A stretch of DNA of 52,859 nucleotides from a virus. Lineage: Duplodnaviria > Heunggongvirae > Uroviricota > Caudoviricetes. Numbering within the stretch: position 1 is the first letter of the stretch; every line of letters begins with the position of its first letter. A model generated the notes under the pieces. It was not told where the DNA came from and searched no databases. It was given only the letters and a program-made list of their open reading frames with translations. The translations under genes and the position numbers were made by a program. The stretch is taken from IMG/VR virus record IMGVR_UViG_2909303794_000004; one strand, written 5' to 3'. Below are positions 1 through 24,145 of the stretch, piece by piece.

Positions 1-19
1 CTATTTGATAAATATTAAA

Positions 20-1315: not shown

Positions 1316-1334
1316 TAGTTAGTGTGGCTTTTAG

Positions 1335-1586
1335 TCAAGTAAGATGACGTCTTGGTCTCGCTGATGCCTGGCGCTCAATCCAGCGATCAATTTCTTCCAG
1401 GTTGTAAAAGCATGGGCTGTTATCCCATGGCATACCGTCATGAGCGACATGCTTATATTCCCTTCCTTCCATAAACGATTTTTCCCGGGCCTTTTTTAAC
1501 GTACCTTTTTTTATTCCTTTCAGCGCAATTAACTGCTCTTCGGATACCCATTTGCCGGGAGAGACAATCATGATTACTTCGCTCAT
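1335..1586 (-). CDS. excisionase-like small DNA-binding protein
   Basis: 83-aa ORF immediately upstream of int on the same strand, the canonical xis position; no motif confirmed. Confidence 0.55.
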   Translation of the reverse strand: MSEVIMIVSPGKWVSEEQLIALKGIKKGTLKKAREKSFMEGREYKHVAHDGMPWDNSPCFYNLEEIDRWIERQASARPRRHLT

Positions 1587-1658
1587 CGATTTCTTTATCT
1601 CTTACATTAGACGAGCGCCGGTTGCAGAATACCAGTCACAACCGGCGACAGTTGAACA

Positions 1659-6584: not shown

Positions 6585-7089
6585 ACAGGCTCGTGAGGCT
6601 CTGGATGCCTGGATATGTCGACCAGGAATGACACAGGAGCAGGCGACGATATTAATCACTGAAGCATTCTGGGCTTTGAAAGAGCGCCCGAACATCGATG
6701 TTCAGCGTGTCACAGATGAAGGTGGTGCGGTTGATCAGCGAGCGCTTGGTGTTAATCGAGTGAAGATATTCGAACGCTGGAAGGCTATCGACACCAGGGA
6801 TAAGCGTGAAAAGTTCACGGCGCTAGTGCCTGCGATTATGGAGGCTATCCGGATTAGTGATTTCAGGTTGTATCGTGAAATTACTGACGGAAAAAGCATC
6901 ACGTGCATGATCGCCGGGTTAAACAAAGAATATGGCGATGTGGTGGAGTCCGGACTGCTTTTTGCTGATCCTGCCGTAGTGGATCGTGAAACTGACGAAC
7001 TTATAGAAAAAGCAATTGCTTTCAAGCTTGCGTATCGACAGCAATACCAACAAAAAGCTGGATGGAATTATGAGCCTTCTTTTTGCTGA
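6568..7089 (+). CDS. hypothetical early regulatory protein, possibly YdaT/CII-like
   Basis: 173-aa ORF directly after the Cro-like gene and before the replication gene, the cII position; family assignment is a guess from memory. Confidence 0.45.
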   Translation: MKITPEQAREALDAWICRPGMTQEQATILITEAFWALKERPNIDVQRVTDEGGAVDQRALGVNRVKIFERWKAIDTRDKREKFTALVPAIMEAIRISDFRLYREITDGKSITCMIAGLNKEYGDVVESGLLFADPAVVDRETDELIEKAIAFKLAYRQQYQQKAGWNYEPSFC

Positions 7090-7990
7090 ACGCCCACTGG
7101 TTATAAACACGCAGCTGGCAATGAAAATTGGCTTAAACGAAGCCATTGTTTTGCAACAACTGCACTACTGGTTGAGAGATACCAACTCCGGCATGGAATG
7201 TGATGGTGTTCGCTGGATTTATAACACAACGGAACAATGGCTGGAACAGTTCCCATTCTGGTCAGAGTCAACGTTAAAGCGCGCGTTTGCAAGTCTGAAA
7301 ACGCTGGGGCTTTTGCGTTGTGAAAAGCTCAATAAATCAAAGCGCGATATGACCAATTTCTACACGATCAACTATGGGAGCGAGCTTTTAGATGGTGGCA
7401 AATTGAGCGAATCCATCGGTTCAAAATGCGCCGCTCCATCAGGTCAAAATGACACGATGGAAGAGGTCAAAATGAAACGCTCCATTGGTTCAAAACGACC
7501 CAATGTCATCGGGTCAAAATGGCCTGATGATCTTACAGAGAATACAACAGAGATTACTACAGAGAATAAAAACACTTTTCGTCCGGAAGCTTCGCAACCG
7601 GACCCGCAGACGACTGAACAGGATTCTTTAACCCGGAACTCCGACGCGGTTGTGTTTAGTGCGAAAAAACGCCAGTGGGGTAGCAGGGAGGATTTGGCGT
7701 GTGCGCAGTGGATCTGGGGGCGGATCGTGGGTCTCTACGAACAGGCAGCCAGTGATGATGGCGAGATCATGCGACCAAAAGAGCCTAACTGGACTGCCTG
7801 GGCCAATGACGTGCGCACAATGCGGATGCTGGATGGCAGAAGCCACAGACAAATTTGCGAAATGTTTGGTCGGGTTCAGCGAGATCCATTCTGGGTAAAA
7901 AACATCATGAGCCCGTCAAAGCTCCGCGAAAAAAAAATGGGACGAACTGGTCATCCGCCTGGGACGTTCACCTGTACAGCGTTGTGTTAA
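7070..7990 (+). CDS. phage replication initiation protein (lambda O analogue) with origin iterons inside the gene
   Basis: 306-aa ORF in the O position; N-terminal HTH-like domain; central region encodes a repeated IGSK motif generated by iterons. Confidence 0.75.
   Translation: MSLLFAERPLVINTQLAMKIGLNEAIVLQQLHYWLRDTNSGMECDGVRWIYNTTEQWLEQFPFWSESTLKRAFASLKTLGLLRCEKLNKSKRDMTNFYTINYGSELLDGGKLSESIGSKCAAPSGQNDTMEEVKMKRSIGSKRPNVIGSKWPDDLTENTTEITTENKNTFRPEASQPDPQTTEQDSLTRNSDAVVFSAKKRQWGSREDLACAQWIWGRIVGLYEQAASDDGEIMRPKEPNWTAWANDVRTMRMLDGRSHRQICEMFGRVQRDPFWVKNIMSPSKLREKKMGRTGHPPGTFTCTALC
7411..7523 (+). repeat. candidate replication origin: five direct ~18-bp iterons (consensus TCCATCNGGTCAAAATG) at 23-24 bp spacing, followed by an A-rich tract
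   Basis: repeats at about 7411, 7435, 7458, 7480 and 7505 read directly; A-rich ACAGAGAATA-type segment at 7530-7575; same arrangement as lambda ori inside O. Confidence 0.6.
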
Positions 7991-8079
7991 TCATATTTCT
8001 GAACCGGATACAGAAATTCCGCCTGGTTTCAGAGGATAAGTGTTGATTTCAGGTCATGAGGTAATTTTAAGGGGGACTT

Positions 8080-8502
8080 GTGGCAAAAGTTTTTACACAA
8101 GAAGAGCGGGAAAAAATTAAATGGCAGGTGGTGGAACTCGTGCGCCAGAGCGGCCGTGAGACGTTACGGCAACTGGAAGCTAAAACAGGTGCGACTAGAT
8201 ATCTGATGAGCGTTCTTGCCAGAGAGCTGGTAGCCAGTGGCGATGTATACAACTCCGGCTACGGGTTATTCCCCTCTGAACAGGCGCGTAAGGACTGGCA
8301 AAACGCCCGCAAAAAACTCTCGAGGGCAAAGGTGAAGAAACCTGCTGTGGTTGATCCGGACCTTATCTGGTCATCACCTGACGGAGAAATACGTCGCTAC
8401 GACAGTCGCCTAAACATAATCTGTCGCGAGTGCCGGAAGAGCGAAGTTATGCAGCGCATACTGGCTTTCTATCAGGGTAATTTTCAGGACGTGGCGCAGT
8501 GA
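8080..8502 (+). CDS. hypothetical phage protein (140 aa)
   Basis: GTG start 7 nt after a strong Shine-Dalgarno (AAGGGGGA); occupies the position of lambda P but is too small and unlike a helicase loader. Confidence 0.55.
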   Translation: MAKVFTQEEREKIKWQVVELVRQSGRETLRQLEAKTGATRYLMSVLARELVASGDVYNSGYGLFPSEQARKDWQNARKKLSRAKVKKPAVVDPDLIWSSPDGEIRRYDSRLNIICRECRKSEVMQRILAFYQGNFQDVAQ

Positions 8503-8844
8503 GTGCACCGGCAACCATTCTTGATATGTGCTGTGGCAGCCGCATGTTCTGGTTCGATAAGTCTGACGAACGGGCGATATTCAGCGATATCAGAAAAGAA
8601 GGATACACATTACGCAATGGGAGACGCTTGATTATCAGCCCTGACATTATCGCAGATTTTCGTGCATTATCATTTGCAGACGCATCTTTTTCGATGGTTG
8701 TATTAGACCCTCCGCATCTTGAGAGTGTTGGTGATAACGCCTGGATGGGAAAGAAATATGGACGGCTGAATAAAGATGCCTGGCGTGATGATTCGCGACA
8801 GAGATTTAAAGAAGCCTTTCGGGTGTTGAGGCCGCACGGCGTAC
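8499..8844 (+). pseudogene. DNA methyltransferase gene, 3' end removed by IS insertion
   Basis: SAM-binding motif ILDMCCGS and a DPPH(L) motif; reading frame runs into the IS629-like left end at 8845. Confidence 0.65.
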
Positions 8845-8898
8845 TGAACCGCCCCGGGAATCCTGGAGACTAAACTCCCTGAGAAAGAGGTAAACAGG

Positions 8899-9225
8899 AT
8901 GACTAAAAATACACGTTTTTCCCCCGAGGTCCGTCAACGGGCAGTTCGTATGGTTCTGGAAAGTCAGGGCGAATATGACTCTCAATGGGCGGCAATTTGT
9001 TCCATTGCCCCAAAGATTGGCTGTACACCAGAGACTCTGCGTGTGTGGGTTCGTCAGCATGAGCGGGATACCGGGAGTGGTGATGGTGGACTCACCACCG
9101 CTGAACGTCAGCGTCTGAAAGAGCTGGAACGTGAAAATCGTGAACTGCGCCGCAGTAACGATATCCTTCGCCAGGCTTCCGCTTATTTTGCGAAGGCGGA
9201 GTTCGACCGCCTCTGGAAAAAATAA
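8899..9225 (+). CDS. IS3-family transposase OrfA (108 aa)
   Basis: [50 protein letters not shown]… matches remembered IS629 OrfA. Confidence 0.9.
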
Positions 9226-10112
9226 TGCCGCTGCTGGATAAGCTGCGTGAGCAGTACGGGGTCGGACCGGTATGCAGTGAACTGCATATTGCCCCGTCAA
9301 CGTATTACCACTGTCAGCAACAGCGACATCATCCTGATAAACGCAGTGCCCGTGCTCAGCGCGATGACTGGCTGAAGAGAGAGATACAGCGCGTATACGA
9401 TGAAAATCATCAGGTGTACGGTGTGCGTAAAGTCTGGCGCCAGTTGTTACGCGAAGGTATCAGGGTGGCCAGATGTACAGTGGCGCGCCTCATGGCGGTT
9501 ATGGGACTTGCCGGTGTTCTCCGGGGTAAAAAGGTCCGTACTACCGTCAGCCGGAAAGCCGTTTCCGCAGGCGACCGCGTAAACCGTCAGTTCGTGGCAG
9601 AACGTCCTGACCAGCTGTGGGTGGCTGATTTTACTTACGTCAGCACATGGCAGGGCTTCGTCTATGTGGCGTTCATCATTGATGTGTTTGCCGGATGTAT
9701 CGTGGGGTGGCGAGTCTCATCGTCTATGGAAACGACATTCGTGCTGGATGCACTGGAGCAGGCGTTGTGGGCCCGTCGGCCGTCCGGCACAGTCCATCAC
9801 AGTGATAAAGGTTCTCAGTATGTATCACTGGCCTATACGGAGCGACTAAAAGAAGCAAAACTGCTGGCATCAACAGGGAGTACAGGTGACTCGTATGACA
9901 ACGCGATGGCGGAGAGCATCAATGGTCTTTACAAAGCGGAGGTAATACACCGTAAGAGCTGGAAAAACCGTGCAGAAGTGGAACTGGCCACACTCACGTG
10001 GGTGGACTGGTATAACAATCGACGATTGCTGGGAAGGCTGGGTCATATCCCTCCGGCAGAAGCAGAAAAAGCTTATTATGCTTCCATCAGAAACGATGAT
10101 CTGGCAGCCTGA
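9225..10112 (+). CDS. IS3-family transposase OrfB (DDE domain)
   Basis: 295-aa ORF overlapping orfA in the -1 frame near an A-run, typical of IS3-family OrfAB. Confidence 0.9.
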   Translation: MPLLDKLREQYGVGPVCSELHIAPSTYYHCQQQRHHPDKRSARAQRDDWLKREIQRVYDENHQVYGVRKVWRQLLREGIRVARCTVARLMAVMGLAGVLRGKKVRTTVSRKAVSAGDRVNRQFVAERPDQLWVADFTYVSTWQGFVYVAFIIDVFAGCIVGWRVSSSMETTFVLDALEQALWARRPSGTVHHSDKGSQYVSLAYTERLKEAKLLASTGSTGDSYDNAMAESINGLYKAEVIHRKSWKNRAEVELATLTWVDWYNNRRLLGRLGHIPPAEAEKAYYASIRNDDLAA

Positions 10113-10778
10113 GTTCACAGATAAAACACTCTCCAGGAAAACCGGGGCGGTTCATTCTGATTTTTTAATGGAATGAAACGCAAATACCGGTAAGCCAGAT
10201 TCTGGCACTGACAGACAGAAAACCTGTTATCTGTCAACGAACAGGGAAAAAACGATAAAACCCACTGGATTATTTTTATGAAAGAGGCATCCAGTGAGTA
10301 GATTCGTAAGGCTACAGATACGTATATCTGAATAATTAAATTCAGTTCTGTAAATAAAATTTAATCCTTAACCGGATGGATTTCTGCACCCTCAGAACAT
10401 CAGGAGGCCGCCCGAAAGGGCGGTAGTGAAATGCGAAAGTTCAAAATTATTATTGAAACGGGAATAGCTGGTGGAGATTTTGAGGATGTATTCGAAGTGG
10501 ACGATGACGCAACACCTGAGGAAATTCATGACGGAGCATAAGAAATTTTCTTTAACTACTGCAATTACTCATACCACGAAATAAAAGACGATGAGGAAGA
10601 ACAAAGTGGCTGATTTTTGTTCAGCTAAATATAACATCAGTTTTGAAGAGCGGGATGAACTATTAATGGACTATGGTGAGTTACGCGGTGGAAGTGCTGC
10701 TGATGTCGAATCCTAGCGTGATGACTATGAAGCGGGAAAAACTCCGGTCGAAGCATATTGTGATGAGTGGGGCGATGA

Positions 10779-11108
10779 ATGAGCGAGATTAATTATCAGG
10801 AAGGGCATGAAACGGCGGGGCAAGCAAAACCAGTGGCATGGCGATATCGCTACGTGAAAAAAGGCGTTACGGACTTTCAGGGGAAGTAGTGGTCTGGTGA
10901 CTGGAAATATGTACCGAAAAAAGAGGATTGTAACGACAGGCCGAACTATCAAATTCAGGCCTTATTCACTGCCTCACCAGTCCCAGTTACATCAGAAGAA
11001 CTGGTTAAAGCTGTGCACTTTTATGAACAACTAAAACGCGAAAATCCACCAACATCCGGCAACAAGATTAATGGATTAACTATGTCGGTTAAACGACCAG
11101 CCAACTGA
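10779..11108 (+). pseudogene. decayed ORF with in-frame amber codon
   Basis: MSEINYQEGHETAGQAKPVAWRYRYVKKGVTDFQGK, then TAG at 10887-10889, then 72 further in-frame codons; upstream short ORFs show serial +1 frame changes and an in-frame TAA at 10539-10541. Confidence 0.3.
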
Positions 11109-11320
11109 AAAAGCGGAAACCTGATTACAGGTTGCCAGATAAGGCAATGAGCTACCTGGCGCGGAACGGACTGATAAGTATGGGGAATGTTTTACGATGA
11201 ACCTTTAGACTAAAGAGTTTGTAACGCTATGTAAGTGATTTTTTCTGGTTTAGATATTTATATGTCCGGCCAAATTGAGGTGTGTTTAAATGTAATTGCA
11301 CATTGATTGTAGGAGGAATA

Positions 11321-11500
11321 ATGAAAAACGCATTGCAGTTTTTGTTTGTTGCGTTCTGGTTGTTCGCATCATGTATGCCCATCATCTTCACAGCAAGGTA
11401 TATGGAAAAAGTTGATGTTTTGATATTAATATTTGGATATATAAATGCCCTTTTTTTAGGGGTGTTCATGGCGGTCATGTGCATTGAATACTGGCGGTAA
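11321..11500 (+). CDS. small hydrophobic membrane protein (59 aa, two predicted TM helices)
   Basis: ATG 7 nt after a perfect AGGAGG; MKNALQFLFVAFWLFASCMPIIFTARYMEKVDVLILIFGYINALFLGVFMAVMCIEYWR. Confidence 0.45.
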   Translation: MKNALQFLFVAFWLFASCMPIIFTARYMEKVDVLILIFGYINALFLGVFMAVMCIEYWR

Positions 11501-11855
11501 ATACAGCGAACTCCATTGGTTTAGTTGGATATTTACTGTGCTGGACAAAAACGGTTTGCGGGGAAATCTTAGTTAAGTAGAATGACTGCGGGTGCTTGAG
11601 GCTATCTGCCTCGGGCATGGACACCAACGGCAGATAGAGAAAAGCCCCAGTTAACATTACGCGTCCTGCAAGACGCTTAACATTAATCTGAGGCCAATTT
11701 CATGCTAGACACATGTAGGTTAGCCTCTTACGTGCCGAAAGGCACGGAGAAGCAGGCTATTGTTAACACCAAGCTGTAATGTCCCCTTTGAACCATTCTA
11801 AAATGTCCCCAGACAATTCTCTGGGGGATTTTTCATAATCAAAGAGACTGTTACG

Positions 11856-13148
11856 ATGAGTCATAAGGAACTCCACCGACTTCAGATTATTCAGGAACAA
11901 GCTGCGGCACGCATTGGCATTTCTATTCGGCAGGTTAAACGTCTGGTGCAACGGTATAGAAATGAAGGGCCTTCTGGTCTGGTTTCCCACCGACGTGGAA
12001 AGCGTCCTAATAATTCCTTTTCTACTGAATTCAGAGCAACAGTAATTTCACTCCTCAAAGGCCGTTACGCTGATTTTGGACCTACGTTTGCGTGCGAAAA
12101 ATTGCGCGAGATACACGGTTTATCTTTATCCGTTGAAACTCTCAGAAAGTGGATGATAGAAGAGGGGTTATGGCGTGAACGCCGTCGTAAAATTGCCCGT
12201 ATATATCAACGCCGCATGCGACGACCATCTTACGGTGAACTGATCCAGATTGATGGCTCACCTCATGACTGGTTTGAAAATCGAGGCCCCAGATGTACAC
12301 TGATCGTTTTCATTGATGATGCCACCAGTGCGTTGATGGCGTTGCGTTTTGTGCCTGCTGAAACAACCCGGGCTTACATGGAAACCCTCCGGGGTTACCT
12401 TAATGATCATGGCGTACCGCTCGCTCTCTACTCTGATAGACACAGTATATTCAGGGTAAATAACCCAGAGCGGGAAGGTGAGCTGACCCAGTTCACTCGT
12501 GCGATAAAGACACTGGGCATCGAGCCAATCCATGCCAACAGCCCGCAGGCAAAAGGGCGGGTAGAGCGCGCCAATCAGACACTACAGGACAGGCTGGTCA
12601 AAGAAATGCGGCTTCAGAATATCAGTGATATTGAAACAGCAAATGCATGGTTGCCGACCTTTATTGAAGCCTATAACAACCGGTTCGCTACGTCGCCTCG
12701 TACTACTGATAATGCTCATCTTGATGTGCACCATTCTGAAGAGGAACTGGGTTATATCTTCAGCCTACAGGCGAAGCGCGTTCTGTCTAAAAATCTCACT
12801 TTCCAGTACAAAAGCAGTGCGTTTCAGGTACGCAGTGAGGGCCGGGGATATCGACTTAGGCATTCGGTTGTTACTGTATGCGAGAACTTTGACGGTGAAA
12901 TTAACGTTCTGTATGACGGGAAAGCGCTGGGCTGGGAAAAGTATGTTGATGGCCCGGAGCCTATACCACTGGATGATGAAAAGAGTGTCCATGAACGAGT
13001 GGATAATGCCCGTATTGATTTACGCTCAAAATACTATGTTAAACCTAAAGCTGACCATCCCTGGCTTACGCGCCGAACGCAAAGTCATCAGCAAGTTAAG
13101 CCCCCGAAGTTACCTAAAAAGAAGCCTGATCCCGATAAAAAAGATTGA
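11856..13148 (+). CDS. DDE (rve-type) transposase with N-terminal HTH, IS481-family-like
   Basis: 430-aa ORF; HTH followed by integrase core (…IDDATSA…YSDRHSIF…HANSPQAKGRVERANQTL…); element ends not resolved. Confidence 0.8.
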   Translation: MSHKELHRLQIIQEQAAARIGISIRQVKRLVQRYRNEGPSGLVSHRRGKRPNNSFSTEFRATVISLLKGRYADFGPTFACEKLREIHGLSLSVETLRKWMIEEGLWRERRRKIARIYQRRMRRPSYGELIQIDGSPHDWFENRGPRCTLIVFIDDATSALMALRFVPAETTRAYMETLRGYLNDHGVPLALYSDRHSIFRVNNPEREGELTQFTRAIKTLGIEPIHANSPQAKGRVERANQTLQDRLVKEMRLQNISDIETANAWLPTFIEAYNNRFATSPRTTDNAHLDVHHSEEELGYIFSLQAKRVLSKNLTFQYKSSAFQVRSEGRGYRLRHSVVTVCENFDGEINVLYDGKALGWEKYVDGPEPIPLDDEKSVHERVDNARIDLRSKYYVKPKADHPWLTRRTQSHQQVKPPKLPKKKPDPDKKD

Positions 13149-13584
13149 AACCAAGATCGATTCGGTTGAGTGCATATCCATTCATAGGGTAGATTCTTAA
13201 GTCGCGTTTCTGGTGTTCATTTTCGGGTGGTTTGTTACTTGTTTTACCGGGGATATGCCAGAAACGCGCTGAGTCAGTCTGGGCGGTGCGCGTAATGAGG
13301 CGTTATGGTAAATAGCCTATGCTAATGTCCGCTAAGAGCAAGAAGCGGAAGTTGGCAGTTTTGTGGACTGTCCCCACAAAAGTGACTACAGAAATAGTTG
13401 CAATTCATAATTGATCATGGGTTGTCAGTTAAACTCGTGGCGATTTAAATAGACTAATTGGGAGTGCGTCCATTACTTATATCTTGTAATGTTAACTATC
13501 AGAAATGATACAAAGATAATATGTCTTTAAAGAAAAGGCTGATGGCGAAAAGTGGCCCGATGAGGGCCACAATACGGCTGTCAC

Positions 13585-13692
13585 TTAGACGTAAATATCA
13601 ATGGTGCCAGCGGTATTTGTATCGTCTTTTTTCTCTTCTTTTTTATCAGGCTGAACTGTCGCGTCTTCATTCTTTTTCTCTGCCTGCTGCCT
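13585..13692 (-). pseudogene. flxA: flxA 3' fragment (C-terminal 35 codons) separated by ISEc8-like insertion
   Basis: reading frame is continuous with 16143-16367 once the IS and one duplication copy are removed, giving a 110-aa FlxA. Confidence 0.75.
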
Positions 13693-13771
13693 TAACAACT
13701 GTAAGCGTACAGCCTGAACCGTCTGGTCAGAATCTGACGAATTAGACAAAGTGGTGTCCACCAAATAAGTA

Positions 13772-14173
13772 GTGGGAACCAAAGTGTCAGATATGCAGAA
13801 AAATGTGACTCCCGGCAGGCGAAAAGGCTGCCCTAATTATCCTCCCGAATTTAAACAGCAGCTCGTTGCTGCCTCCTGTGAACCCGGGATATCCATCTCA
13901 AAACTTGCTCTTGAAAATGGCATTAACGCCAATCTGTTGTTCAAATGGCGACAACAATGGCGCGAGGGAAAGCTGCTATTACCTTCTTCAGAGAGCCCCC
14001 AGCTACTTCCTGTGACTCTCGATGCAGCTGCCGAACAGCCAGAATCGCTCGCAGAGGACCCGGAAACCCTCAGTATCAGCTGTGAGGTAACGTTCCGGCA
14101 CGGGACGCTCCGCTTCAATGGCAATGTCAGCGAAAAGCTCCTGACTCTGCTGATACAGGAACTGAAGCGATGA
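13772..14173 (+). CDS. IS66-family accessory protein (orf1)
   Basis: first ORF of the IS66-type three-gene set. Confidence 0.8.
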   Translation: MGTKVSDMQKNVTPGRRKGCPNYPPEFKQQLVAASCEPGISISKLALENGINANLLFKWRQQWREGKLLLPSSESPQLLPVTLDAAAEQPESLAEDPETLSISCEVTFRHGTLRFNGNVSEKLLTLLIQELKR

Positions 14174-14517
14174 TCCCGTTACCTTCCGGGACCAAAATTT
14201 GGCTGGTTGCCGGTATCACCGATATGAGAAATGGCTTCAACGGCCTGGCTGCGAAAGTACAGACGGCGCTGAAAGACGATCCCATGTCCGGCCATGTTTT
14301 CATTTTCCGGGGCCGCAGCGGCAGTCAGGTTAAACTGCTGTGGTCCACCGGTGACGGGCTGTGCCTCCTGACCAAACGGCTGGAGCGTGGGCGCTTCGCC
14401 TGGCCGTCAGCCCGTGATGGCAAAGTGTTCCTTACGCAGGCGCAGCTGGCGATGCTGCTGGAAGGTATCGACTGGCGACAGCCTAAGCGGCTGCTGACCT
14501 CCCTGACCATGCTGTAA
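14170..14517 (+). CDS. IS66-family accessory protein (orf2)
   Basis: 115-aa ORF overlapping orf1 by ATGA, typical of IS66. Confidence 0.85.
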
Positions 14518-14566
14518 ATCTCTTTATCCTGGTTGTCACAGAATAAGCCCGGTAAAATACGGGCTT

Positions 14567-16105
14567 ATGAACGACATCTCTTCTGACGACATCTTCCTGC
14601 TGAAACAGCGCCTGGCCGAACAGGAAGCGCTGATCCACGCCCTGCAGGAAAAGCTGAGCAACCGGGAGCGCGAAATAGACCATCTGCAGGCGCAGCTGGA
14701 TAAACTCCGCCGGATGAACTTCGGCAGTCGTTCCGAAAAAGTCTCCCGCCGTATCGCACAAATGGAAGCCGATCTGAACCGGCTTCAGAAAGAGAGCGAT
14801 ACGCTGACTGGTAGGGTGTATGACCCGGCAGTACAGCGTCCGTTGCATCAGACCCGCACCCGTAAGCCGTTCCCTGAATCACTACCCCGTGACGAAAAGC
14901 GACTGTTGCCTGCGGCGCCGTGCTGCCCGAACTGCGGCGGTTCACTGAGCTATCTGGGCGAGGATACCGCCGAACAGCTGGAGTTGATGCGTAGCGCCTT
15001 CCGGGTTATCCGGACGGTACGGGAAAAACATGCCTGTACTCAGTGCGATGCCATCGTGCAGGCACCTGCACCTTCGCGGCCCATCGAGCGGGGTATCGCC
15101 GGACCGGGGCTGCTGGCCCGCGTGCTGACCTCGAAGTATGCAGAGCACACCCCGCTGTATCGCCAGTCAGAAATATACGGCCGGCAAGGTGTGGAGCTGA
15201 GCCGTTCACTGCTGTCGGGCTGGGTGGATGCATGCTGCCGGCTGCTGTCTCCGCTGGAAGAGGCGCTTCATGGCTATGTCATGACTGACGGCAAACTCCA
15301 TGCCGATGATACCCCGGTCCAGGTACTGCTGCCGGGTAATAAGAAGACGAAGACCGGGCGGTTGTGGGCGTATGTTCGTGATGACCGCAATGCCGGGTCA
15401 GCGTTGGCACCTGCAGTGAGGTTCGCTTACAGCCCGGACAGAAAAGGCATCCATCCGCAGGCTCATCTTGCTTGCTTCAGCGGTGTGCTGCAAGCGGATG
15501 CGTACGCCGGGTTCAACGAGCTGTATCGCAATGGTGGGATAACGGAAGCTGCCTGCTGGGCTCATGCCCGCCGAAAGATCCACGATGTGCACGTCCGCAT
15601 CCCGTCAGCACTGACGGAAGAAGCCCTGGAGCAGATCGGTCAGTTGTACGCCATAGAGGCGGATATAAGGGGAATGCCGGCAGAGCAGCGGCTTGCTGAA
15701 CGTCAGCGAAAAACGAAACCGCTGTTGAAATCCCTGGAAAGCTGGTTGCGTGAAAAGATGAAGACCCTGTCGCGACACTCAGAGTTGGCGAAGGCGTTCG
15801 CGTACGCACTTAACCAGTGGCCGGCACTGACGTACTATGCGAACGATGGCTGGGTGGAAATCGACAACAACATCGCTGAAAATGCCCTGCGGGCGGTCAG
15901 TCTGGGTCGTAAAAACTTCCTGTTCTTCGGCTCTGACCATGGTGGTGAGCGGGGAGCGCTACTGTACAGCCTGATCGGGACGTGCAAACTGAATGACGTG
16001 GATCCAGAAAGCTACCTTCGCCATGTGCTTGGCGTCATAGCAGACTGGCCGGTCAACCGGGTCAGCGAACTGCTTCCGTGGCGCATAGCACTGCCAGCTG
16101 AATAA
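14567..16105 (+). CDS. IS66-family transposase (orf3)
   Basis: 512-aa ORF with N-terminal coiled-coil/leucine zipper and cysteine cluster (CPNCG…CTQCD), typical of IS66 transposases. Confidence 0.9.
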
Positions 16106-16142
16106 CACATCCCCGTCAATACGGCCCTCGCTGTACGCTTAC

Positions 16143-16367
16143 TAACAACTGCTCCAGTTGAGCCCAGAGGCTTTCAATTTGCTTCTGTACCAATGCAGCC
16201 ATTTCTTTTTTCTGCTGTGTCGTCATCCCCTCTTCCGATGAGATTTTCCCAAGCTTTTCAGTCAGCACCTGAATTTGTCTTGTGATTTTGGCTATTTCTG
16301 ATGTTCCTTCCGGGGCGGAGTTGTTTGAAATAACGGTTGAGGTATTTCCCTGAATTGTGACAGACAT
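16143..16367 (-). pseudogene. flxA: flxA 5' fragment (N-terminal 75 codons)
   Basis: MSVTIQGNTSTVISNNSAPEGTSEIAKITRQIQVLTEKLGK… matches remembered FlxA; reads into the ISEc8 right end. Confidence 0.8.
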
Positions 16368-16390
16368 AGATTTCTCCTTTTAAAAAAGCA

Positions 16391-16417
16391 CTATCGGCAT
16401 GCACAAAAAAATCTTTA
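16391..16417 (-). promoter_or_regulatory. sigma-28 (FliA) type promoter upstream of flxA
   Basis: minus strand reads TAAAGATT-N11-GCCGATAG against consensus TAAAGTTT-N11-GCCGATAA; about 25 nt upstream of the flxA start. Confidence 0.65.
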
Positions 16418-16569
16418 ATCGTATTTCTTGTGTCATTAATTGTTTGATGTTCAGATTGTTTTCCTCGCGGGCTGGCGCGCCTCAGAAAGTAAAGCTTGTT
16501 GACAGGGGTAAACGTTCGGCAATAATTTTCTGCCGCATGCGGGTGTTGCATAAAACGTGCTACGTTCCT

Positions 16570-16875
16570 TTATCGACAGGTCAGGTCACCGCTCACCCGC
16601 CGACGAGAAAGCAACACTGACATGCTAAAGCAAAAAATAGATGAATAAGTTGAGTTGTGCATATGTAGCCTGACCGTCACAAAGTATATGGTGTCTGTAC
16701 CAGTAAGATGATGGCCGGACTCTTTAAAAACGAGCTGACCTGCACAATACAGGATGGACTTAGCAATGGCTGCTCCTGGCACAAAGCGGACAGTGATCAC
16801 CGTTCTTACGACTACTTTCTGACTTCCTTCGTGACTTGCCCTAAGCATGTTGTAGTGCGATACTTGTAATGACAT
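16570..16875 (-). CDS. ydfV: YdfV-like hypothetical ORF (101 aa), doubtful
   Basis: ORF of the size and position of K-12 ydfV between flxA and relB; composition not convincingly protein-like. Confidence 0.3.
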   Translation of the reverse strand: MSLQVSHYNMLRASHEGSQKVVVRTVITVRFVPGAAIAKSILYCAGQLVFKESGHHLTGTDTIYFVTVRLHMHNSTYSSIFCFSMSVLLSRRRVSGDLTCR

Positions 16876-16887
16876 TTGTAATTACAA
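16864..16887 (+). promoter_or_regulatory. relBE operator-like repeats (TTGTAATGACATTTGTAATTACAA)
   Basis: palindromic TTGTAAT repeats immediately upstream of the relB start. Confidence 0.55.
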
Positions 16888-16899
16888 GAGGTGTAAGAC

Positions 16900-17139
16900 A
16901 TGGGTAGCATTAACCTGCGTATTGACGATGAACTTAAAGCGCGTTCTTACGCCGCGCTTGAAAAAATGGGTGTAACTCCTTCTGAAGCGCTTCGTCTCAT
17001 GCTCGAGTATATCGCTGACAATGAACGCTTGCCGTTCAAACAGACACTCCTGAGTGATGAAGATGCTGAACTTGTGGAGATAGTGAAAGAACGGCTTCGT
17101 AATCCTAAGCCAGTACGTGTGACGCTGGATGAACTCTGA
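16900..17139 (+). CDS. relB: RelB antitoxin (79 aa)
   Basis: MGSINLRIDDELKARSYA…NPKPVRVTLDEL matches remembered RelB. Confidence 0.9.
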   Translation: MGSINLRIDDELKARSYAALEKMGVTPSEALRLMLEYIADNERLPFKQTLLSDEDAELVEIVKERLRNPKPVRVTLDEL

Positions 17140-17426
17140 TGGCGTATTTTCTGGATTTTGACGAGCGGGCACTAAAGGAATGGCGAAAGCTGGGCTCGAC
17201 GGTACGTGAACAGTTGAAAAAGAAGCTGGTTGAAGTACTTGAGTCACCCCGGATTGAAGCAAACAAGCTCCGTGGTATGCCTGATTGTTACAAGATTAAG
17301 CTCCGGTCTTCAGGCTATCGCCTTGTATACCAGGTTATAGACGAGAAAGTTGTCGTTTTCGTGATTTCTGTTGGGAAAAGAGAACGCTCGGAAGTATATA
17401 GCGAGGCGGTCAAACGCATTCTCTGA
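17139..17426 (+). CDS. relE: RelE mRNA-interferase toxin (95 aa)
   Basis: MAYFLDFDERALKEWRKLGSTVREQLKKKL…; start overlaps the relB stop. Confidence 0.9.
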   Translation: MAYFLDFDERALKEWRKLGSTVREQLKKKLVEVLESPRIEANKLRGMPDCYKIKLRSSGYRLVYQVIDEKVVVFVISVGKRERSEVYSEAVKRIL

Positions 17427-17497
17427 ACCAAAGCATGACATCTCTGTTTCGCACCGAAGGTGACACTTCTGCTTTGCGTTGACAGGAGAAGCAGGCT

Positions 17498-17653
17498 ATG
17501 AAGCAGCAAAAGGCGATGTTAATCGCCCTGATCGTCATCTGTTTAACCGTCATAGTGACGGCACTGGTAACGAGGAAAGACCTCTGCGAGGTACGAATCC
17601 GAACCGGCCAGACGGAGGTCGCTGTCTTCACAGCTTACGAACCTGAGGAGTAA
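17498..17653 (+). CDS. hokD: Hok-family membrane toxin HokD/RelF (51 aa)
   Basis: manual translation MKQQKAMLIALIVICLTVIVTALVTRKDLCEVRIRTGQTEVAVFTAYEPEE; below the ORF-track size cutoff. Confidence 0.85.
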   Translation: MKQQKAMLIALIVICLTVIVTALVTRKDLCEVRIRTGQTEVAVFTAYEPEE

Positions 17654-17721
17654 GAGACCCGGCGGGGGAGAAATCCCTCGCCACCTCTGATGTGGCAGGC
17701 ATCCTCAACGCACCCGCACTT

Positions 17722-17748
17722 AACCCGCTTCGGCGGGTTTTTGTTTTT
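17722..17748 (+). terminator. intrinsic terminator after relBE-hokD
   Basis: AACCCGCTTCGGCGGGTTTTTGTTTTT hairpin plus T-run. Confidence 0.6.
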
Positions 17749-17869
17749 ATTTTCAACGCGTTTGAAGTTCTGGACGGTGCCGGAATAGAATCAAAAATAC
17801 TTAAGTAGCGCGCAGGGATAAGAGGGATGGTCCCTTAAAGGGGAGAGCTAATTATCCGGAAGGATTCTG

Positions 17870-18121
17870 ATGATGAACATCGAAGAACTGCGTAAAATTT
17901 TTTGTGAAGAGGGCCTCTATGCTGTGTGCGTTGAAAATGGAAATCTTGTTAGTCATTACCGCATTATGTGTTTGCGAAAGAATGGGGCTGCGTTAATTAA
18001 TTTTGTGGATGCTCGGGTCACGGACGGATTTATCTTGCGCGAAGGTGAGTTTGTCACTTCATTACAGGCATTGAAAGAGATCGGAATAAAAGCTGGCTTT
18101 TCTGCTTTTTCAGGAGAATAA
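17870..18121 (+). CDS. rem: Rem-like small protein (83 aa)
   Basis: 83-aa ORF in the K-12 rem position between hokD and ydfU. Confidence 0.6.
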   Translation: MMNIEELRKIFCEEGLYAVCVENGNLVSHYRIMCLRKNGAALINFVDARVTDGFILREGEFVTSLQALKEIGIKAGFSAFSGE

Positions 18122-18187
18122 ACTCATCTACAATCTTGCGCGGGGCTGAACTCCCGCTGAGTAACACCGTGCCACCGGAGAAAACCG

Positions 18188-18466
18188 ATGGCACGCAACG
18201 CAAAATATTACAATTCTGATAATTCGCCCGTTCTTGCCTGCACGCACGGGCGGTATTCTCACGCATTCAAGTCTGAATGGTTCCAGCACCCTCCATGCAC
18301 TGCAGAACAGGCCGAATGGCTGATTCATTCTTACCGCAGGCGCGGGTTCGAGGTTAAGAAAGCTCTCAGTCTCGACTATCGGCACTGGATAATCTCTGTC
18401 AGGCTGCCTTATTCCGAACGCCCACCACGTGCGTCCCGCACTTTCCAGCAACGGATCTGGAGGTAA
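18188..18466 (+). CDS. hypothetical protein (92 aa) translationally coupled to ydfU
   Basis: GGAG 7 nt upstream of ATG; stop TAA at 18464-18466 lies 1 nt before the ydfU GTG start and inside its Shine-Dalgarno. Confidence 0.5.
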   Translation: MARNAKYYNSDNSPVLACTHGRYSHAFKSEWFQHPPCTAEQAEWLIHSYRRRGFEVKKALSLDYRHWIISVRLPYSERPPRASRTFQQRIWR

Positions 18467-18467
18467 C

Positions 18468-19517
18468 GTGCGGGTATTACTTAGACCTGTTCTGGTGCCT
18501 GAGCTTGGGCTGGTGGTCCTTAAGCCGGGCCGTGAATCCATACAGATATTTCATAATCCTCGAGTGCTGGTGGAACCGGAACCAAAAAGCATGCGTAATC
18601 TGCCATCCGGAGTCGTTCCTGCCGTTCGCCAGCCGCTGGCGGAAGACAAAACATTGCTGCCGTTTTTTAGTAACGAACGGGTGATTCGTGCTGCTGGCGG
18701 CGTTGGCGCATTGTCCGACTGGCTATTACGTCATGTTACATCCTGCCAGTGGCCTAATGGCGATTACCATCACACTGAAACAGTCATTCACCGTTATGGT
18801 ACCGGCGCAATGGTGTTGTGCTGGCACTGCGACAACCAACTGCGTGACCAGACATCGGAATCACTGGAGCTGCTTGCTCAACAAAATCTGACAGCATGGG
18901 TGATTGACGTCATCCGTCACGCAATAAGCGGTACGCAGGAGCGGGAATTATCTTTGGCTGAATTATCCTGGTGGGCGGTCTGCAATCAGGTGGTGGATGC
19001 ACTACCTGAGGCTGTATCGCGTCGTTCGCTGGGATTACCAGCGGAAAAAATCTGCTCGGTGTACCGCGAAAGCGACATCGTACCGGGAGAGCAGACCGCC
19101 ACCAGCATATTGAAACAACGCACAAAAAATCTTGCACCGTTGCCTTACGCCCACCAGCAACAAAAATCACCACAGGAAAAGACGGTGGTAAGCATCACCG
19201 TTGATCCAGAGTCTCCGGAATCTTTCATGAAGCTGCCTAAACGTCGCCGCTGGGTTAAGGAGAAATACACACGTTGGGTTAAGACACAGCCGTGTGCTTG
19301 CTGCGGTATGCCAGCCGACGATCCGCATCATCTGATTGGTCACGGGCAGGGCGGAATGGGAACAAAAGCACATGATCTCTTTGTGTTGCCTTTGTGCAGA
19401 AAGCATCACAACGAGCTGCATACGGATACAGTGGCATTTGAAGAGAAGTATGGCTCCCAACTGGAGCTGATATTTCGTTTTATCGATCGCGTGCTGGCAA
19501 TTGGCGTACTGGCGTAA
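18468..19517 (+). CDS. ydfU: YdfU-like protein (349 aa) with C-terminal HNH-like Cys/His motif
   Basis: GTG start 5 nt after GGAGGT gives 349 aa; C-terminus CACCGMPADDPHHLIGHG…HDLFVLPLCRKHHNELH resembles an HNH nuclease motif. Confidence 0.65.
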   Translation: MRVLLRPVLVPELGLVVLKPGRESIQIFHNPRVLVEPEPKSMRNLPSGVVPAVRQPLAEDKTLLPFFSNERVIRAAGGVGALSDWLLRHVTSCQWPNGDYHHTETVIHRYGTGAMVLCWHCDNQLRDQTSESLELLAQQNLTAWVIDVIRHAISGTQERELSLAELSWWAVCNQVVDALPEAVSRRSLGLPAEKICSVYRESDIVPGEQTATSILKQRTKNLAPLPYAHQQQKSPQEKTVVSITVDPESPESFMKLPKRRRWVKEKYTRWVKTQPCACCGMPADDPHHLIGHGQGGMGTKAHDLFVLPLCRKHHNELHTDTVAFEEKYGSQLELIFRFIDRVLAIGVLA

Positions 19518-19530
19518 GTGGAGAACGAGC

Positions 19531-20283
19531 ATGAACCTTGAAGCCTTACCAAAATATTACTCCCCAAAATCTCCAAAATTGAGCGATGACGCTCCAGCGA
19601 CAGGCACCGGTTGTTTAACAATTACGGATGTAATGGCAGCGCAGGGGATGGTGCAGTCGAAAGCACCACTTGGGTTGGCCTTATTTCTGGCAAAAGTTGG
19701 TGTTCAGGACCCTCAGTTTGCGATTGAAGGCCTGCTAAATTACGCGATGGCACTGGATAACCCGACATTGAACAAATTGAGTGAAGAAATCCGGTTACAG
19801 ATTATTCCTTACCTCGTGAGTTTTGCCTTTGCTGATTACTCCAGGTCTGCGGCAAGTAAGGCTCGCTGTGAGCATTGTTCAGGTACGGGATTTTATAATG
19901 TATTGCGCGAAGTGGTGAAACACTACAGACGCGGGGAATCTGTAATCAAGGAAGAATGGGTGAAGGAACTATGTCAGCATTGCCATGGTAAGGGCGAAGC
20001 CAGCACAGCGTGCAGAGGGTGTAAGGGTAAAGGGATTGTTCTGGATGAAAAAAGAACCCGGTTTCATGGCGTACCGGTATATAAGATTTGTGGGCGTTGT
20101 AATGGAAACCGGTTTAGTCGTTTACCGATCACGCTGGCACGACGTCATGTCCAGAAGCTGGTACCAGACCTGACCGATTATCAGTGGTATAAGGGGTATG
20201 CGGACGTCATTGGTAAACTGGTAACAAAGTGCTGGCAGGAAGAAGCATACGCGGAAGCGCAATTGAGGAAGGTGACGAGATAA
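19531..20283 (+). CDS. quuQ: late-gene antiterminator Q (250 aa)
   Basis: 250-aa ORF with cysteine cluster (CEHCSGTG…CQHCHGKG…CRGCKGKG) upstream of a candidate late promoter and terminator; position and size match K-12 quuQ. Confidence 0.8.
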   Translation: MNLEALPKYYSPKSPKLSDDAPATGTGCLTITDVMAAQGMVQSKAPLGLALFLAKVGVQDPQFAIEGLLNYAMALDNPTLNKLSEEIRLQIIPYLVSFAFADYSRSAASKARCEHCSGTGFYNVLREVVKHYRRGESVIKEEWVKELCQHCHGKGEASTACRGCKGKGIVLDEKRTRFHGVPVYKICGRCNGNRFSRLPITLARRHVQKLVPDLTDYQWYKGYADVIGKLVTKCWQEEAYAEAQLRKVTR

Positions 20284-20314
20284 ATGATTTTTGCTGAAGA
20301 TGGCGACATGATGT

Positions 20315-20343
20315 TTGCATTTTTCAAAAAATATGGATAAAAT
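20315..20343 (+). promoter_or_regulatory. candidate late promoter (-35 TTGCAT, 17-bp spacer, -10 TAAAAT)
   Basis: hexamers read directly; 32 nt downstream of the Q stop; terminator about 50 nt further on. Confidence 0.5.
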
Positions 20344-20389
20344 TTTTTCAACGATGGGCTTTGTATACCCGACGTTAAGAAAAAGTAGA

Positions 20390-20416
20390 AAACCCGCTGA
20401 TGAGCGGGTTTTGTGC
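20390..20416 (+). terminator. intrinsic terminator downstream of the candidate late promoter
   Basis: AAACCCGCTGATGAGCGGGTTTTGTGCTTT hairpin plus U-rich tail. Confidence 0.65.
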
Positions 20417-20704
20417 TTTAAATGGGGCAATGGTAATGTTGAATCTCATCCCGGGACTCATGTCTGTTAACTTATTATTTAGCTGGTGACTTGGTTATTT
20501 GCCTGATGTTTAAAATGTTTTCTTCCAGTACAATGTCCCTAAACACAATGAGTCTGCTTATTATATTATTAGCAGAGCTATTACGGCCAAAGTACAGCAT
20601 AAGCTTTTAAAGCCAATCAACCAGTCATCAAGACAGACGGGGTTATTCATAAAAACTCTCCATGTGTGATCCGATGGGGCCTGAAATTAAAGCTTTAATA
20701 TAGC

Positions 20705-20917
20705 TCATGAAAGGTAAACATTGGCAGCTGAAGGGCCACGCAGACCATTTATCCGGCAAAATTCCACGCGTAATCCGGTGGTAATTTCTTCTGCATCGCG
20801 GAGATTGAGCGCTGAAACATGAAGCTGGACATCGATACGACCATCGGATGGGGTGATAAGACCCTTGCCGCTTTTGCCGTCAAAGGTTTTGACAATTCCT
20901 GTCATTTTACGGGACAA
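20705..20917 (-). CDS. cspF: cold-shock domain protein, CspF/CspH-like (70 aa)
   Basis: [27 protein letters not shown]…[19 protein letters not shown]; cold-shock domain with the divergent CspF-type sequence. Confidence 0.8.
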
Positions 20918-21217
20918 AAAAATTCCTTAATACTGATAACTTGGCGCACTATACACACGTTCCTGAAGAAAGCTATAGTTTTTTGATGGGGTTGAAGATG
21001 GCTGGATGTCTAAAATAAACATTGCTTCATATGTTCAACTATGCGTTAATGATTGCGTCGGTTTGAAGAACAGACGATATACGAAGTAGTTTACTAAAGC
21101 AGTTCTCATTTCAGGTGTTATTCACTTATTCCTTCTTTGAGTCTCTCCAATTAAGTACGAAGTCGTTTCTGTTATGCAAACCATTTATGCCGAAAGGCTC
21201 AAGTTAAGGAATGTAGA

Positions 21218-21433
21218 ATGTCAAATAAAATGACTGGTTTAGTAAAATGGTTTAACGCTGATAAAGGTTTCGGCTTTATTTCTCCTGTTGATGGTAGTAA
21301 AGATGTGTTTGTGCATTTTTCTGCGATTCAGAATGATAATTATCGAACCTTATTTGAAGGTCAAAAGGTTACCTTCTCTATAGAGAGTGGTGCTAAAGGT
21401 CCTGCAGCAGCAAATGTCATCATTACTGATTAA
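21218..21433 (+). CDS. cspB: cold-shock protein CspB (71 aa)
   Basis: [67 protein letters not shown]… near-identical to remembered CspB. Confidence 0.9.
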
Positions 21434-21714
21434 AATTCATCGCTCGTCTGTATACGATAACGAAGAAGGCTGATGCCTGAGTAGAGATACGGACAGAGTA
21501 GTGAATATTGGATCTCTTTAATAAAAAGTAAGGAGGTCCAATACATGAAACAATGGCTAGCATATTTGGCAAAATCTTAATCAGGAAAAGTATGCTAACC
21601 ATTGTGGTGAAGTGCAGGTTTGCTGCATGAATAGTTTTACAGCAGAAGCTAACTGCTGGCATGGCAAAACAAAGTGCGTAAGTGGATGACTCCCACAAAA
21701 AGCACCACAATCTC

Positions 21715-21738
21715 AAACCCGCTCAGGCGGGTTTTTTA
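21715..21738 (+). terminator. intrinsic terminator
   Basis: AAACCCGCTCAGGCGGGTTTTTT. Confidence 0.55.
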
Positions 21739-21796
21739 TTATCTGCTTTAAATATATTATTAAAATATAAAAAATACTTGTTACTAATAAAATCAA

Positions 21797-22018
21797 TCAG
21801 GCTACAGCTTTAAGATTTGTCTGGAATACTTTGTTGCAATGAGGGCAGATCAAAAGGGCACCTTTTTGTACTCTTGAAAAACTGTGTTCTGACTCTTGGG
21901 TGCAGTTTGGGCAGGAACATTTAACGAGATAATTACGGCGTGATTTTGAGTTTTTACGTTCTGACATAGGCTTTTCCTGTATAAATGGCCGTATACAGTA
22001 CACTAAATATGAAAACAT
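21797..22018 (-). CDS. small zinc-ribbon protein (CxxC…CxxC), hypothetical
   Basis: 73-aa ORF (probable internal start MSERKNSK…) containing CSCPNC…CPHC; between cspB and the holin gene. Confidence 0.4.
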   Translation of the reverse strand: MFSYLVYCIRPFIQEKPMSERKNSKSRRNYLVKCSCPNCTQESEHSFSRVQKGALLICPHCNKVFQTNLKAVA

Positions 22019-22186
22019 TTCTCGTATTATTATTTTATATATGACTTTCTTTCAAAATAATTACCCACATTTTTAATGTGTATGTTTTTTTAGCGCCGTT
22101 GAGAACAACGTGTGCTGTCAAAACTACCCCGTAGACTCCGATCTTTTCAAACATATTGCACCATCCGTGTACATCGGGGTGAGGAT

Positions 22187-22402
22187 ATGAAATCAATGGA
22201 TAAGTTAACAACAGGTGTTGCCTATGGCACATCGGCGGGTAATGCTGGTTTCTGGGCATTGCAGTTACTCGATAAAGTAACTCCGTCACAGTGGGCTGCA
22301 ATCGGTGTGCTGGGTAGCCTGGTTTTTGGCCTGCTGACGTATCTGACAAATCTTTATTTCAAGATTAAAGAAGACAGGCGTAAGGCTGCGAGAGGAGAGT
22401 AA
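22187..22402 (+). CDS. essQ: class II holin (pinholin-like, S21 family; 71 aa) with dual-start motif
   Basis: [53 protein letters not shown]…; GGTGAGGA Shine-Dalgarno; two TM segments; precedes a SAR endolysin. Confidence 0.8.
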
Positions 22403-22406
22403 TCCA

Positions 22407-22718
22407 ATGACTCAAGACTATGAACTGGTTGTGAAAGGAGTCCGTAATTTTGAGAATAAAGTTACGGTAACTGTAGCCTTACAGGACAAAGAACGCTTTG
22501 ACGGTGAAATTTTTGACCTGGATGTCGCCATGGACCGTGTTGAAGGAGCTGCGCTGGAGTTTTATGAGGCAGCAGCCAGAAGGAGCGTCCGGCAAGTCTT
22601 CCTGGAAGTAGCAGAAAAATTGTCAGAAAAAGTTGAGTCTTATCTGCAGCATCAGTACTCCTTTAAGATTGAAAATCCTGCCAATAAGCACGAGCGTCCT
22701 CATCATAAATATCTATGA
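22407..22718 (+). CDS. ydfR: YdfR-like protein (103 aa)
   Basis: 103-aa ORF between holin and endolysin as in K-12; stop overlaps the endolysin start (ATGA). Confidence 0.65.
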   Translation: MTQDYELVVKGVRNFENKVTVTVALQDKERFDGEIFDLDVAMDRVEGAALEFYEAAARRSVRQVFLEVAEKLSEKVESYLQHQYSFKIENPANKHERPHHKYL

Positions 22719-22832
22719 ACACAAAAATCAGATACGGCCTGTCGGCTGCCGTTCTGGCGCTGATTGGTGCTGGCGCATCTGCTCCTCAGATACTTGACCA
22801 GTTTCTGGACGAAAAAGAAGGTAACCACACAA
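22715..22832 (+). pseudogene. SAR-endolysin gene, 5' part (39 codons with N-terminal signal-arrest-release helix), interrupted by IS629-like insertion
   Basis: MNTKIRYGLSAAVLALIGAGASAPQILDQFLDEKEGNHT then the IS left end; frame resumes at 24146. Confidence 0.8.
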
Positions 22833-22874
22833 TGAACCGCCCCGGGTTTCCTGGAGAGTGTTTTATCTGTGAAC

Positions 22875-23765
22875 TCAGGCTGCCAGATCATCGTTTCCGA
22901 TGGAAGCATAATAAGCTTTTTCTGCTTCTGCCGGAGGAGTATGGCCCAGCCTTTCCAGCAATCGTCGATTGTTATACCAGTCCACCCACGTGAGTGTGGC
23001 CAGTTCCACTTCTGCACGGTTTTTCCAGCTCTTACGGTGTATTACCTCCGCTTTGTAAAGGCCATTGATGCTCTCCGCCATCGCGTTGTCATACGAGTCG
23101 CCTGTACTTCCTGTTGATGCCAGTAATCCGGCTTCCTTAAGCCGCTGTGTGTAGGCCAGCGATACATACTGAGAACCTTTATCACTGTGATGGACTGTGC
23201 CGGACGGTCGACGGGCCCATAACGCCTGCTCCAGAGCATCCAGCACAAATGTCGTTTCCATAGACGATGAGACCCGCCACCCCACGATGTATCCGGCAAA
23301 CACATCAATGATGAACGCCACATAGACGACCCCCTGCCATGTGCTGACGTAAGTAGAATCAGCCACCCACAACTGGTCAGGACGTTCTGCCACGAACTGA
23401 CGGTTTACGCGGTCGCCTGCGACAACGGCTTTCCGGCTGATGGTCGTACGGACCTTTTTACCACGGAGAACACCGGCAAGTCCCATAACCGCCATGAGAC
23501 GTGCCACAGTGCATCTGGCCACTCTGATACCTTCCCGTAACAACTGACGCCAGACTTTACGCACACCGTATACCTTGTGATTTTCATCGTATACGCGCTG
23601 TATCTCTTTCTTCAGCCAGTCATCGCGCTGCGCACGGGCACTGCGTTTATCCGGATGATGTCGCTGTTGCTGACAGTGGTAATACGTTGACGGGGCAATA
23701 TGCAGTTCGCTGCATAGCGGTCCGACCCCGTACTGCTCACGCAGCTTATCCAGCAGTGGCATCAT
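22875..23765 (-). CDS. IS3-family transposase OrfB
   Basis: 296-aa ORF homologous to 9225-10112. Confidence 0.9.
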
Positions 23766-24088
23766 TTTTTCCAGAGGCGGTCGAACTCCGCCTTCGCAAA
23801 ATAAGCGGAAGCCTGGCGAAGGATATCGTTACTGCGGCGCAGTTCACGATTTTCACGTTCCAGCTCTTTCAGACGCTGACGTTCAGCGGTGGTGAGCCCG
23901 CCATCACCGCCTCCGGTATCCCGCTCATGCTGGCGTACCCAGACACGCAGAGTCTCCGGTGTACAGCCAATCTTTGGGGCAATGGAACAAATTGCCGCCC
24001 ACTGTGAGTCATATTCGCCCTGACTTTCCAGAACCATACGAATCGCCCTCTGACGGACTTCGGGGGAAAAACGAGTATTTTTAGTCAT
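23762..24088 (-). CDS. IS3-family transposase OrfA
   Basis: 108-aa ORF, 2 substitutions relative to copy 1. Confidence 0.9.
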
Positions 24089-24145
24089 CCTGTTTACCTC
24101 TTTCTCAGGGAGTTTAGTCTCCAGGATTCCCGGGGCGGTTCACAA

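Follow-up and report, generated by a model that had tools for sequence, protein, structure and literature searches.

In a 52,859-nt stretch of viral DNA (Caudoviricetes; IMG/VR record IMGVR_UViG_2909303794_000004), analysed at its full length and hereafter called the window, we studied the locus at positions 13,585–16,417, where a copy of the insertion sequence (IS) ISEc8 lies inside the coding sequence of flxA, a gene of the Qin prophage of Escherichia coli K-12. The IS divides flxA into two pieces and leaves its FliA (sigma-28) promoter in place.

The element, a complete ISEc8 of the IS66 family, occupies positions 13701–16142 on the plus strand (2442 bp), as delimited by its terminal repeats, a target-site duplication and the copies annotated in RefSeq. 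Read along the plus strand, it begins with GTAAGCGTACAGCC and finishes with GCTGTACGCTTAC. A repeat finder returned inverted repeat arms of 22 nt, the left one (IRL, GTAAGCGTACAGCCTGAACCGT) at 13701–13722 (+) and the right one (IRR) at 16121–16142 (−). These arms are 82% complementary (18/22), with identity confined to the outer 13 bp. The terminal 13-mer, GTAAGCGTACAGC, has two exact occurrences in the window, inverted and one at each end of the element, against a chance expectation of 0.05, and it provides both ends with the 5′-GTAA terminus of the IS66 family. The element is also flanked by the 8-bp target-site duplication of that family, since TAACAACT is found immediately to its left (13693–13700) and right (16143–16150) and as a single copy at the empty site in K-12. 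Counting both strands, this octamer occurs four times in the window.

Between the ends, three plus-strand genes follow the IS66 order tnpA–tnpB–tnpC and include an IS66-type DDE transposase. tnpA (13793–14173) encodes an IS66 accessory protein of 126 amino acids (aa), recognised by the NCBIfam IS66 TnpA model NF047595 (97.7 bits; cut-off 74) and by Pfam HTH_Tnp_1; its product is identical to WP_001171554-type copies, and translation from the alternative GTG at 13772 would extend it to the 133 aa of L0013. The tnpA stop is overlapped by the tnpB start as ATGA (14170–14173), which is characteristic of IS66 elements and of ISEc8. tnpB (14170–14517) encodes the 115-aa Orf2 accessory protein (NCBIfam IS66_TnpB, 120 bits, cut-off 50; Pfam PF05717, E = 1.2e-38), and tnpC (14567–16105) a full-length IS66-family DDE transposase of 512 aa (NCBIfam transpos_IS66, 460 bits, cut-off 180). 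In TnpC, Pfam identified LZ_Tnp_IS66, zf-IS66, DDE_Tnp_IS66 (positions 1–283 of 284) and the C-terminal element; across the three genes the Pfam set includes PF05717, PF03050, PF13817, PF13007 and PF13005, and the IS66 domains extend over the whole of each protein. With the GTG start, the three open reading frames (ORFs) have the lengths reported for the ISEc8 ORFs L0013, L0014 and L0015, namely 133, 115 and 512 aa (PMC2762410).

We named the element from its nucleotide identity of 99.55–99.96% to RefSeq ‘ISEc8 family’ copies, and not from the ISfinder reference. By ISfinder convention, elements share a name above 95% aa or 90% nucleotide identity. In a megablast search of 5426 complete E. coli genomes, the RefSeq-annotated copies, which carry the name ‘IS66-like element ISEc8 family transposase’, were 99.4–99.7% identical, in alignments that extend ∼20 bp into the flanks. 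A base-by-base comparison restricted to the element found a single difference in 2442 nt from the ISEc8 copy of strain Res13-Lact-PEA14-20, with no indels and all three proteins identical, and 11 nt differences from an O157:H7 copy, again with no indels and with four TnpC substitutions. On this sequence evidence the element is ISEc8 itself, apparently intact, and this copy is apparently transposition-competent. The initial annotation had described an ‘ISEc8-like’ IS66-family element of 2442 bp with an 8-bp duplication and perfect terminal repeats. The boundaries, the gene set and the family thresholds agree with its length and family, the name could be sharpened to ISEc8, and the duplication is present at both ends; the repeats are perfect in their outer 13 bp and not along the full 22-nt arms.

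The interrupted gene is read from the minus strand. Its 5′ fragment, codons 1–75, covers 16143–16367 with the ATG at 16365–16367, and its 3′ fragment covers 13585–13692, comprising codons 76–110 (13588–13692) and a TAA stop (13585–13587); the insertion point falls within codons 73–75. A Shine-Dalgarno sequence, AGGAG, was read at 16374–16378 (−), 6 nt 5′ of the ATG. Beyond the IS, the native intrinsic terminator of flxA is at 13546–13570 (−), where a hairpin (GUGGCCC-UCAUC-GGGCCAC; 13552–13570) is followed by UUUUCG; the region 13525–13590 (−) folds with −18.3 kcal/mol (z = −3.33), and none of 200 shuffles folds as well. In-silico removal of the IS together with one TAACAACT restored a single in-frame ORF of 110 aa, the product of which matches the Pfam FlxA family PF14282 (E = 2.3e-14; 53.8 bits, cut-off 26.3). 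An NCBIfam scan of FlxA returned no families, and NCBIfam is without a FlxA model.

Over its 521 bp, the restored locus shows 100% identity to E. coli K-12 MG1655, in which the gene carries the name flxA, and the uninterrupted site was found in 1168 of the complete genomes. The flanks are co-linear with K-12: window positions 12964–13701 are 100% identical and positions 16143–22834 are 99.91% identical. The two K-12 segments overlap by 9 bp, consisting of the duplicated octamer and one base that matches by chance. The neighbouring genes also follow the order of the Qin prophage (ydfW, flxA, ydfV, relB, relE and hokD). Therefore, by its sequence, this is a K-12-type flxA that the insertion is predicted to inactivate. 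No flagellar function is known for flxA (PMC4183435, PMC1935009).

Upstream of the flxA start, at 16391–16417 (−), we identified a FliA promoter by consensus scan and by identity to K-12. It consists of TAAAGATT (−35), an 11-nt spacer and GCCGATAG (−10), and matches 14 of the 16 positions of the sigma-28 consensus that we used, TAAAGTTT-N11-GCCGATAA. The −10 element ends 24 nt 5′ of the ATG and the predicted transcription start is near 16383. This is the sole site in the window with two or fewer mismatches (0.04 expected by chance; 4 of 100 shuffles had any such site). Together with the next base, the promoter forms the 28-mer TAAAGATTTTTTTGTGCATGCCGATAGT, which is the K-12 flxA motif in a table of FliA sites from chromatin immunoprecipitation sequencing, with a fold-above-threshold (FAT) score of 16 (PMC4183435, Table 2). 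Expression of flxA by RNA sequencing was 280 in motile MG1655 versus 2 in a ΔfliA strain (PMC4183435). An independent array study measured a 28-fold decrease of flxA in a fliA deletion and an 8-fold increase on sigma-F induction (PMC1935009). Base for base, the promoter sequence is thus that of the experimentally validated FliA-dependent promoter of K-12 flxA, and it is in K-12 that this dependence has been demonstrated. The insertion has left the promoter and the ribosome-binding site as they were, and codons 1–75 of flxA with them. These results bear out the initial annotation, which had placed an intact, near-consensus sigma-28 promoter before flxA and had divided the gene into 75 and 35 codons, as the coordinates of both fragments confirm; the in-silico excision that it had suggested as a check gave the 110-aa FlxA of K-12 and of PF14282.

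Because flxA and the IS genes are read from opposite strands (minus and plus, respectively), the flxA promoter faces the right end of the IS, and FliA-driven transcription would enter through IRR and run antisense to tnpC. A consensus scan, which is crude and blind to Rho-dependent sites, found no minus-strand terminator-like site between the promoter and the IS; one weak site of this kind was found at 13873–13857, near the far (left) end of the IS. The native flxA terminator has been displaced 2.45 kb further from the promoter. Because no terminator-like site precedes the IS and the native terminator lies beyond it, it is reasonable to infer, as the initial annotation had done, that transcription driven by FliA would now enter the element. 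A sigma-70 consensus scan of the IS and both junctions revealed no junction-created promoter.

The junction also creates a fusion ORF of 83 aa (16116–16367, −), in which codons 1–75 of flxA are followed by VSVQRGPY from the right end of the IS and then by a stop. If FliA is active in this strain, transcription initiated near 16383 would cover the truncated flxA, and ribosomes would make the 83-aa FlxA′ fusion and stop 27 nt inside the IS. Transcription would then proceed antisense to tnpC until it terminates, and the termination is probably Rho-dependent: with ribosomes stopping at 16116, no translation would shield the antisense RNA beyond that point from Rho. GC skew, used as an indicator of C-richness in the antisense RNA and thereby of Rho loading, is only mildly favourable (∼+0.1 over 15200–16000).

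We then considered how widespread the insertion is. None of the 5426 complete genomes had a match over 80% or more of a 160-bp probe placed across the left junction. An example of the junction 30-mers is CTGCCTTAACAACTGTAAGCGTACAGCC. An exact look-up of the 83-aa fusion protein gave two short contigs only, one of which was retrieved. This metagenome contig (ENA ERZ27308828) is 100% identical to window positions 16003–17624, spans the right junction and encodes the exact fusion product. An identical right junction in an independent metagenome assembly shows that the allele is real, but it is rare. The sole full-length match to the whole locus in complete genomes is a different pair of IS66-family elements in flxA, in strain SCPM-O-B-9504. 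In the bovine strain UTAK-1, ISEc8 is found elsewhere in the same prophage backbone and flxA is intact.

Target choice was assessed from 31 ISEc8 left-end flanks, mostly from Escherichia sp. MOD1-EC7003, with others from E. albertii, Klebsiella and further sources. Within the duplication (roughly G-W-W-Y-R-W-N-N), six positions had an information content of only 0.15–0.35 bit, compared with ∼0 outside it, and TAACAACT agrees with this weak bias at 5 of the 6 positions. A strong target motif, suspected from the first three flanks (CTGCTGCCTTAACAACT, CTACTGCCGGAACAACC and GATGCTGAATCAAT), was rejected on the sample of 31. In the MOD1-EC7003 draft (NZ_PTRE01), more than 20 contig ends or junctions carry the left end of ISEc8 without a mismatch, a sign that ISEc8 has undergone a large expansion in one Escherichia lineage. 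Corynebacterium and Oliverpabstia metagenome-assembled genomes, and contigs with a Streptococcus sanguinis label, also had exact ISEc8 ends; these are probably due to contamination or mis-binning.

Taken together, we attribute the locus, with a probability of roughly 93%, to ordinary ISEc8 transposition into flxA of a Qin-like lambdoid prophage in an E. coli strain, with an 8-bp duplication and loss of flxA. The sequence establishes the element, where it begins and ends and the target octamer that it duplicated, and likewise identifies the gene and the promoter sequence. ISEc8 would have inserted at codons 73–75 of flxA and duplicated TAACAACT in doing so. The simplest reading is a chance insertion into a dispensable prophage gene in a lineage with active ISEc8, and we infer that the insertion is probably neutral. 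No observation contradicts the structure of the locus. Against the account and the read-in that goes with it, FliA and flhDC activity in the source strain is not visible from the window, and an insertion present in 0 of 5426 complete E. coli genomes gives no indication from populations that it has been favoured or disfavoured by selection.

The retained promoter raises the question of whether the arrangement has consequences of its own. We consider it quite unlikely that the FliA promoter, by acting antisense across tnpC, damps or modulates the ISEc8 transposase when the flagellar regulon is on, or that the 83-aa FlxA(1–75) fusion keeps or alters FlxA activity; if true, either would be an example from nature of an IS66-family element under the control of a host sigma factor. 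There is likewise only a slender chance that the arrangement is adaptive, that is, that FliA-driven antisense transcription over tnpC couples transposase expression to the flagellar regulon through transcriptional interference or antisense RNA, or that selection favoured losing or truncating FlxA. The promoter, a strong one in K-12, converges on tnpABC with no intervening terminator-like site, and two other IS66-family elements, ISCro1 and ISEc22, independently struck flxA in SCPM-O-B-9504. However, the disruption in that strain is at another position and involves a deletion, which fits random insertions into a dispensable gene, and the junction studied here, in 0 of 5426 complete genomes against 1168 with the empty site, gives no sign of spread or of recurrence at the site. 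The weak target bias of the 31 flanks, the UTAK-1 prophage with its ISEc8 elsewhere and flxA intact, and the absence of a known function for FlxA (PMC4183435, PMC1935009) also argue against selection.

It is very improbable that a repeat-induced misjoin placed an ISEc8 copy inside flxA during assembly. IS copies are a classic source of misassembly and the window has at least three others, but the assembly contains each of the two junctions, and the 8-bp target of K-12 is duplicated exactly, as real IS66-family transposition leaves it; contig ERZ27308828 crosses the right junction with 100% identity over 1622 bp. It is hardly credible that we are dealing with an IS66 relic, decayed or non-autonomous, as the 18/22 repeats of the element might suggest. 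Other ISEc8 copies have identical imperfect ends, the 2442 bp of the element are without indels, and another copy encodes the same three proteins without a difference. The target duplication is intact, which points to a recent event that no rearrangement has followed, and one genome in which this left end occurs at more than 20 junctions shows the sequence type to be mobile.

The surrounding prophage holds further IS elements and is more complete than K-12 Qin. At 22835–24140 (−) is an IS3-family element of ∼1.3 kb with RefSeq relatives in the IS1203 family, comprising ORFs at 22875–23765 and 23762–24088 and an ALIL pseudoknot at 23691–23807. It is inserted relative to K-12 and occupies the place of the prophage lysozyme gene rrrQ, an insertion that would disable prophage lysis; its exact junction is in no complete E. 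coli genome. A second IS3-family copy is at 8850–10160 (+), with ORFs at 8899–9225 and 9225–10112 and an ALIL pseudoknot at 9180–9296. UTAK-1, which shares the backbone, has an IS3-family element at the matching place with its ISEc8 copy right beside it. Positions 11856–13148 (+) form a continuous ORF for a 430-aa ISNCY-family transposase. As its last 49 codons (12999–13148) match K-12 ‘ydfW’, the latter looks like the C-terminal remnant of this transposase after a deletion that removed window positions 6848–12963 from K-12 Qin. Just 5′ of the ISNCY transposase gene, an Rfam match to the sok antitoxin RNA (11590–11761, +; 104 bits) implies a second hok/sok-type locus besides hokD at 17498–17653.

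In the flxA–ydfV intergenic region, a near-consensus sigma-70-like promoter (TTGACA-16-AATAAT, 11/12 matches) is present at 16499–16526 (+). It points away from flxA, is antisense to ydfV and is ∼370 bp 5′ of relB; no Rfam family was found at this promoter, and an Rfam scan likewise returned nothing within 13585–16417. At the left end of the window (1–4130, −), the genes for an integrase (20–1315; 431 aa) and an exonuclease-domain protein (1659–4130; 823 aa) are both intact, whereas in K-12 Qin they are pseudogenes split by an IS2 fragment. Terminase and tail genes are found further right, and there are no tRNAs in the window.

The significance of the insertion is small. It documents, cleanly and in a form that can be dated, the activity of ISEc8 in a Qin-like prophage, and it provides a natural null allele of flxA, which does not illuminate FlxA function. 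Possible uses are as a strain marker, and as a natural construct for the effect of convergent host transcription on the expression of an IS66-family transposase.

We finally compared the locus with known systems. ISEc8 of E. coli O157:H7 EDL933 (L0013, L0014 and L0015) has the same length of 2442 bp, GTAAGCG... termini, ATGA overlap, 512-aa DDE transposase and 8-bp duplication. The insertion site alone differs, and ISEc8 was not found within flxA in any of the complete E. coli genomes of the collection. Likewise, once the IS is excised, flxA is like that of K-12 Qin (b1566), with 100% identity along 521 bp that take in the coding sequence, the promoter, the ribosome-binding site and the terminator; in contrast to K-12, the gene here is split after codon 75 and the prophage around it is more complete and has other IS copies. 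E. coli SCPM-O-B-9504 (NZ_CP144930.1) is alike in having IS66-family elements within flxA that face the same way as here with respect to the gene and leave the FliA promoter in place. Its elements are ISCro1 and ISEc22, however, at another position, with ∼45 bp of flxA deleted and ISCro1 truncated by ISEc22, and this disruption is an independent event. IS insertions 5′ of flhDC are known to change motility by activating the master regulator from upstream. As in those cases, an IS here meets the flagellar regulon, but it follows a class-3-type promoter, and the gene that it destroys has no known role in motility. In conclusion, the components of the locus, namely ISEc8, flxA and its FliA-dependent promoter, have already been described at 99.9–100% identity, and only the insertion allele is unrecorded among complete genomes: this is an ordinary insertion and not a new kind of system.

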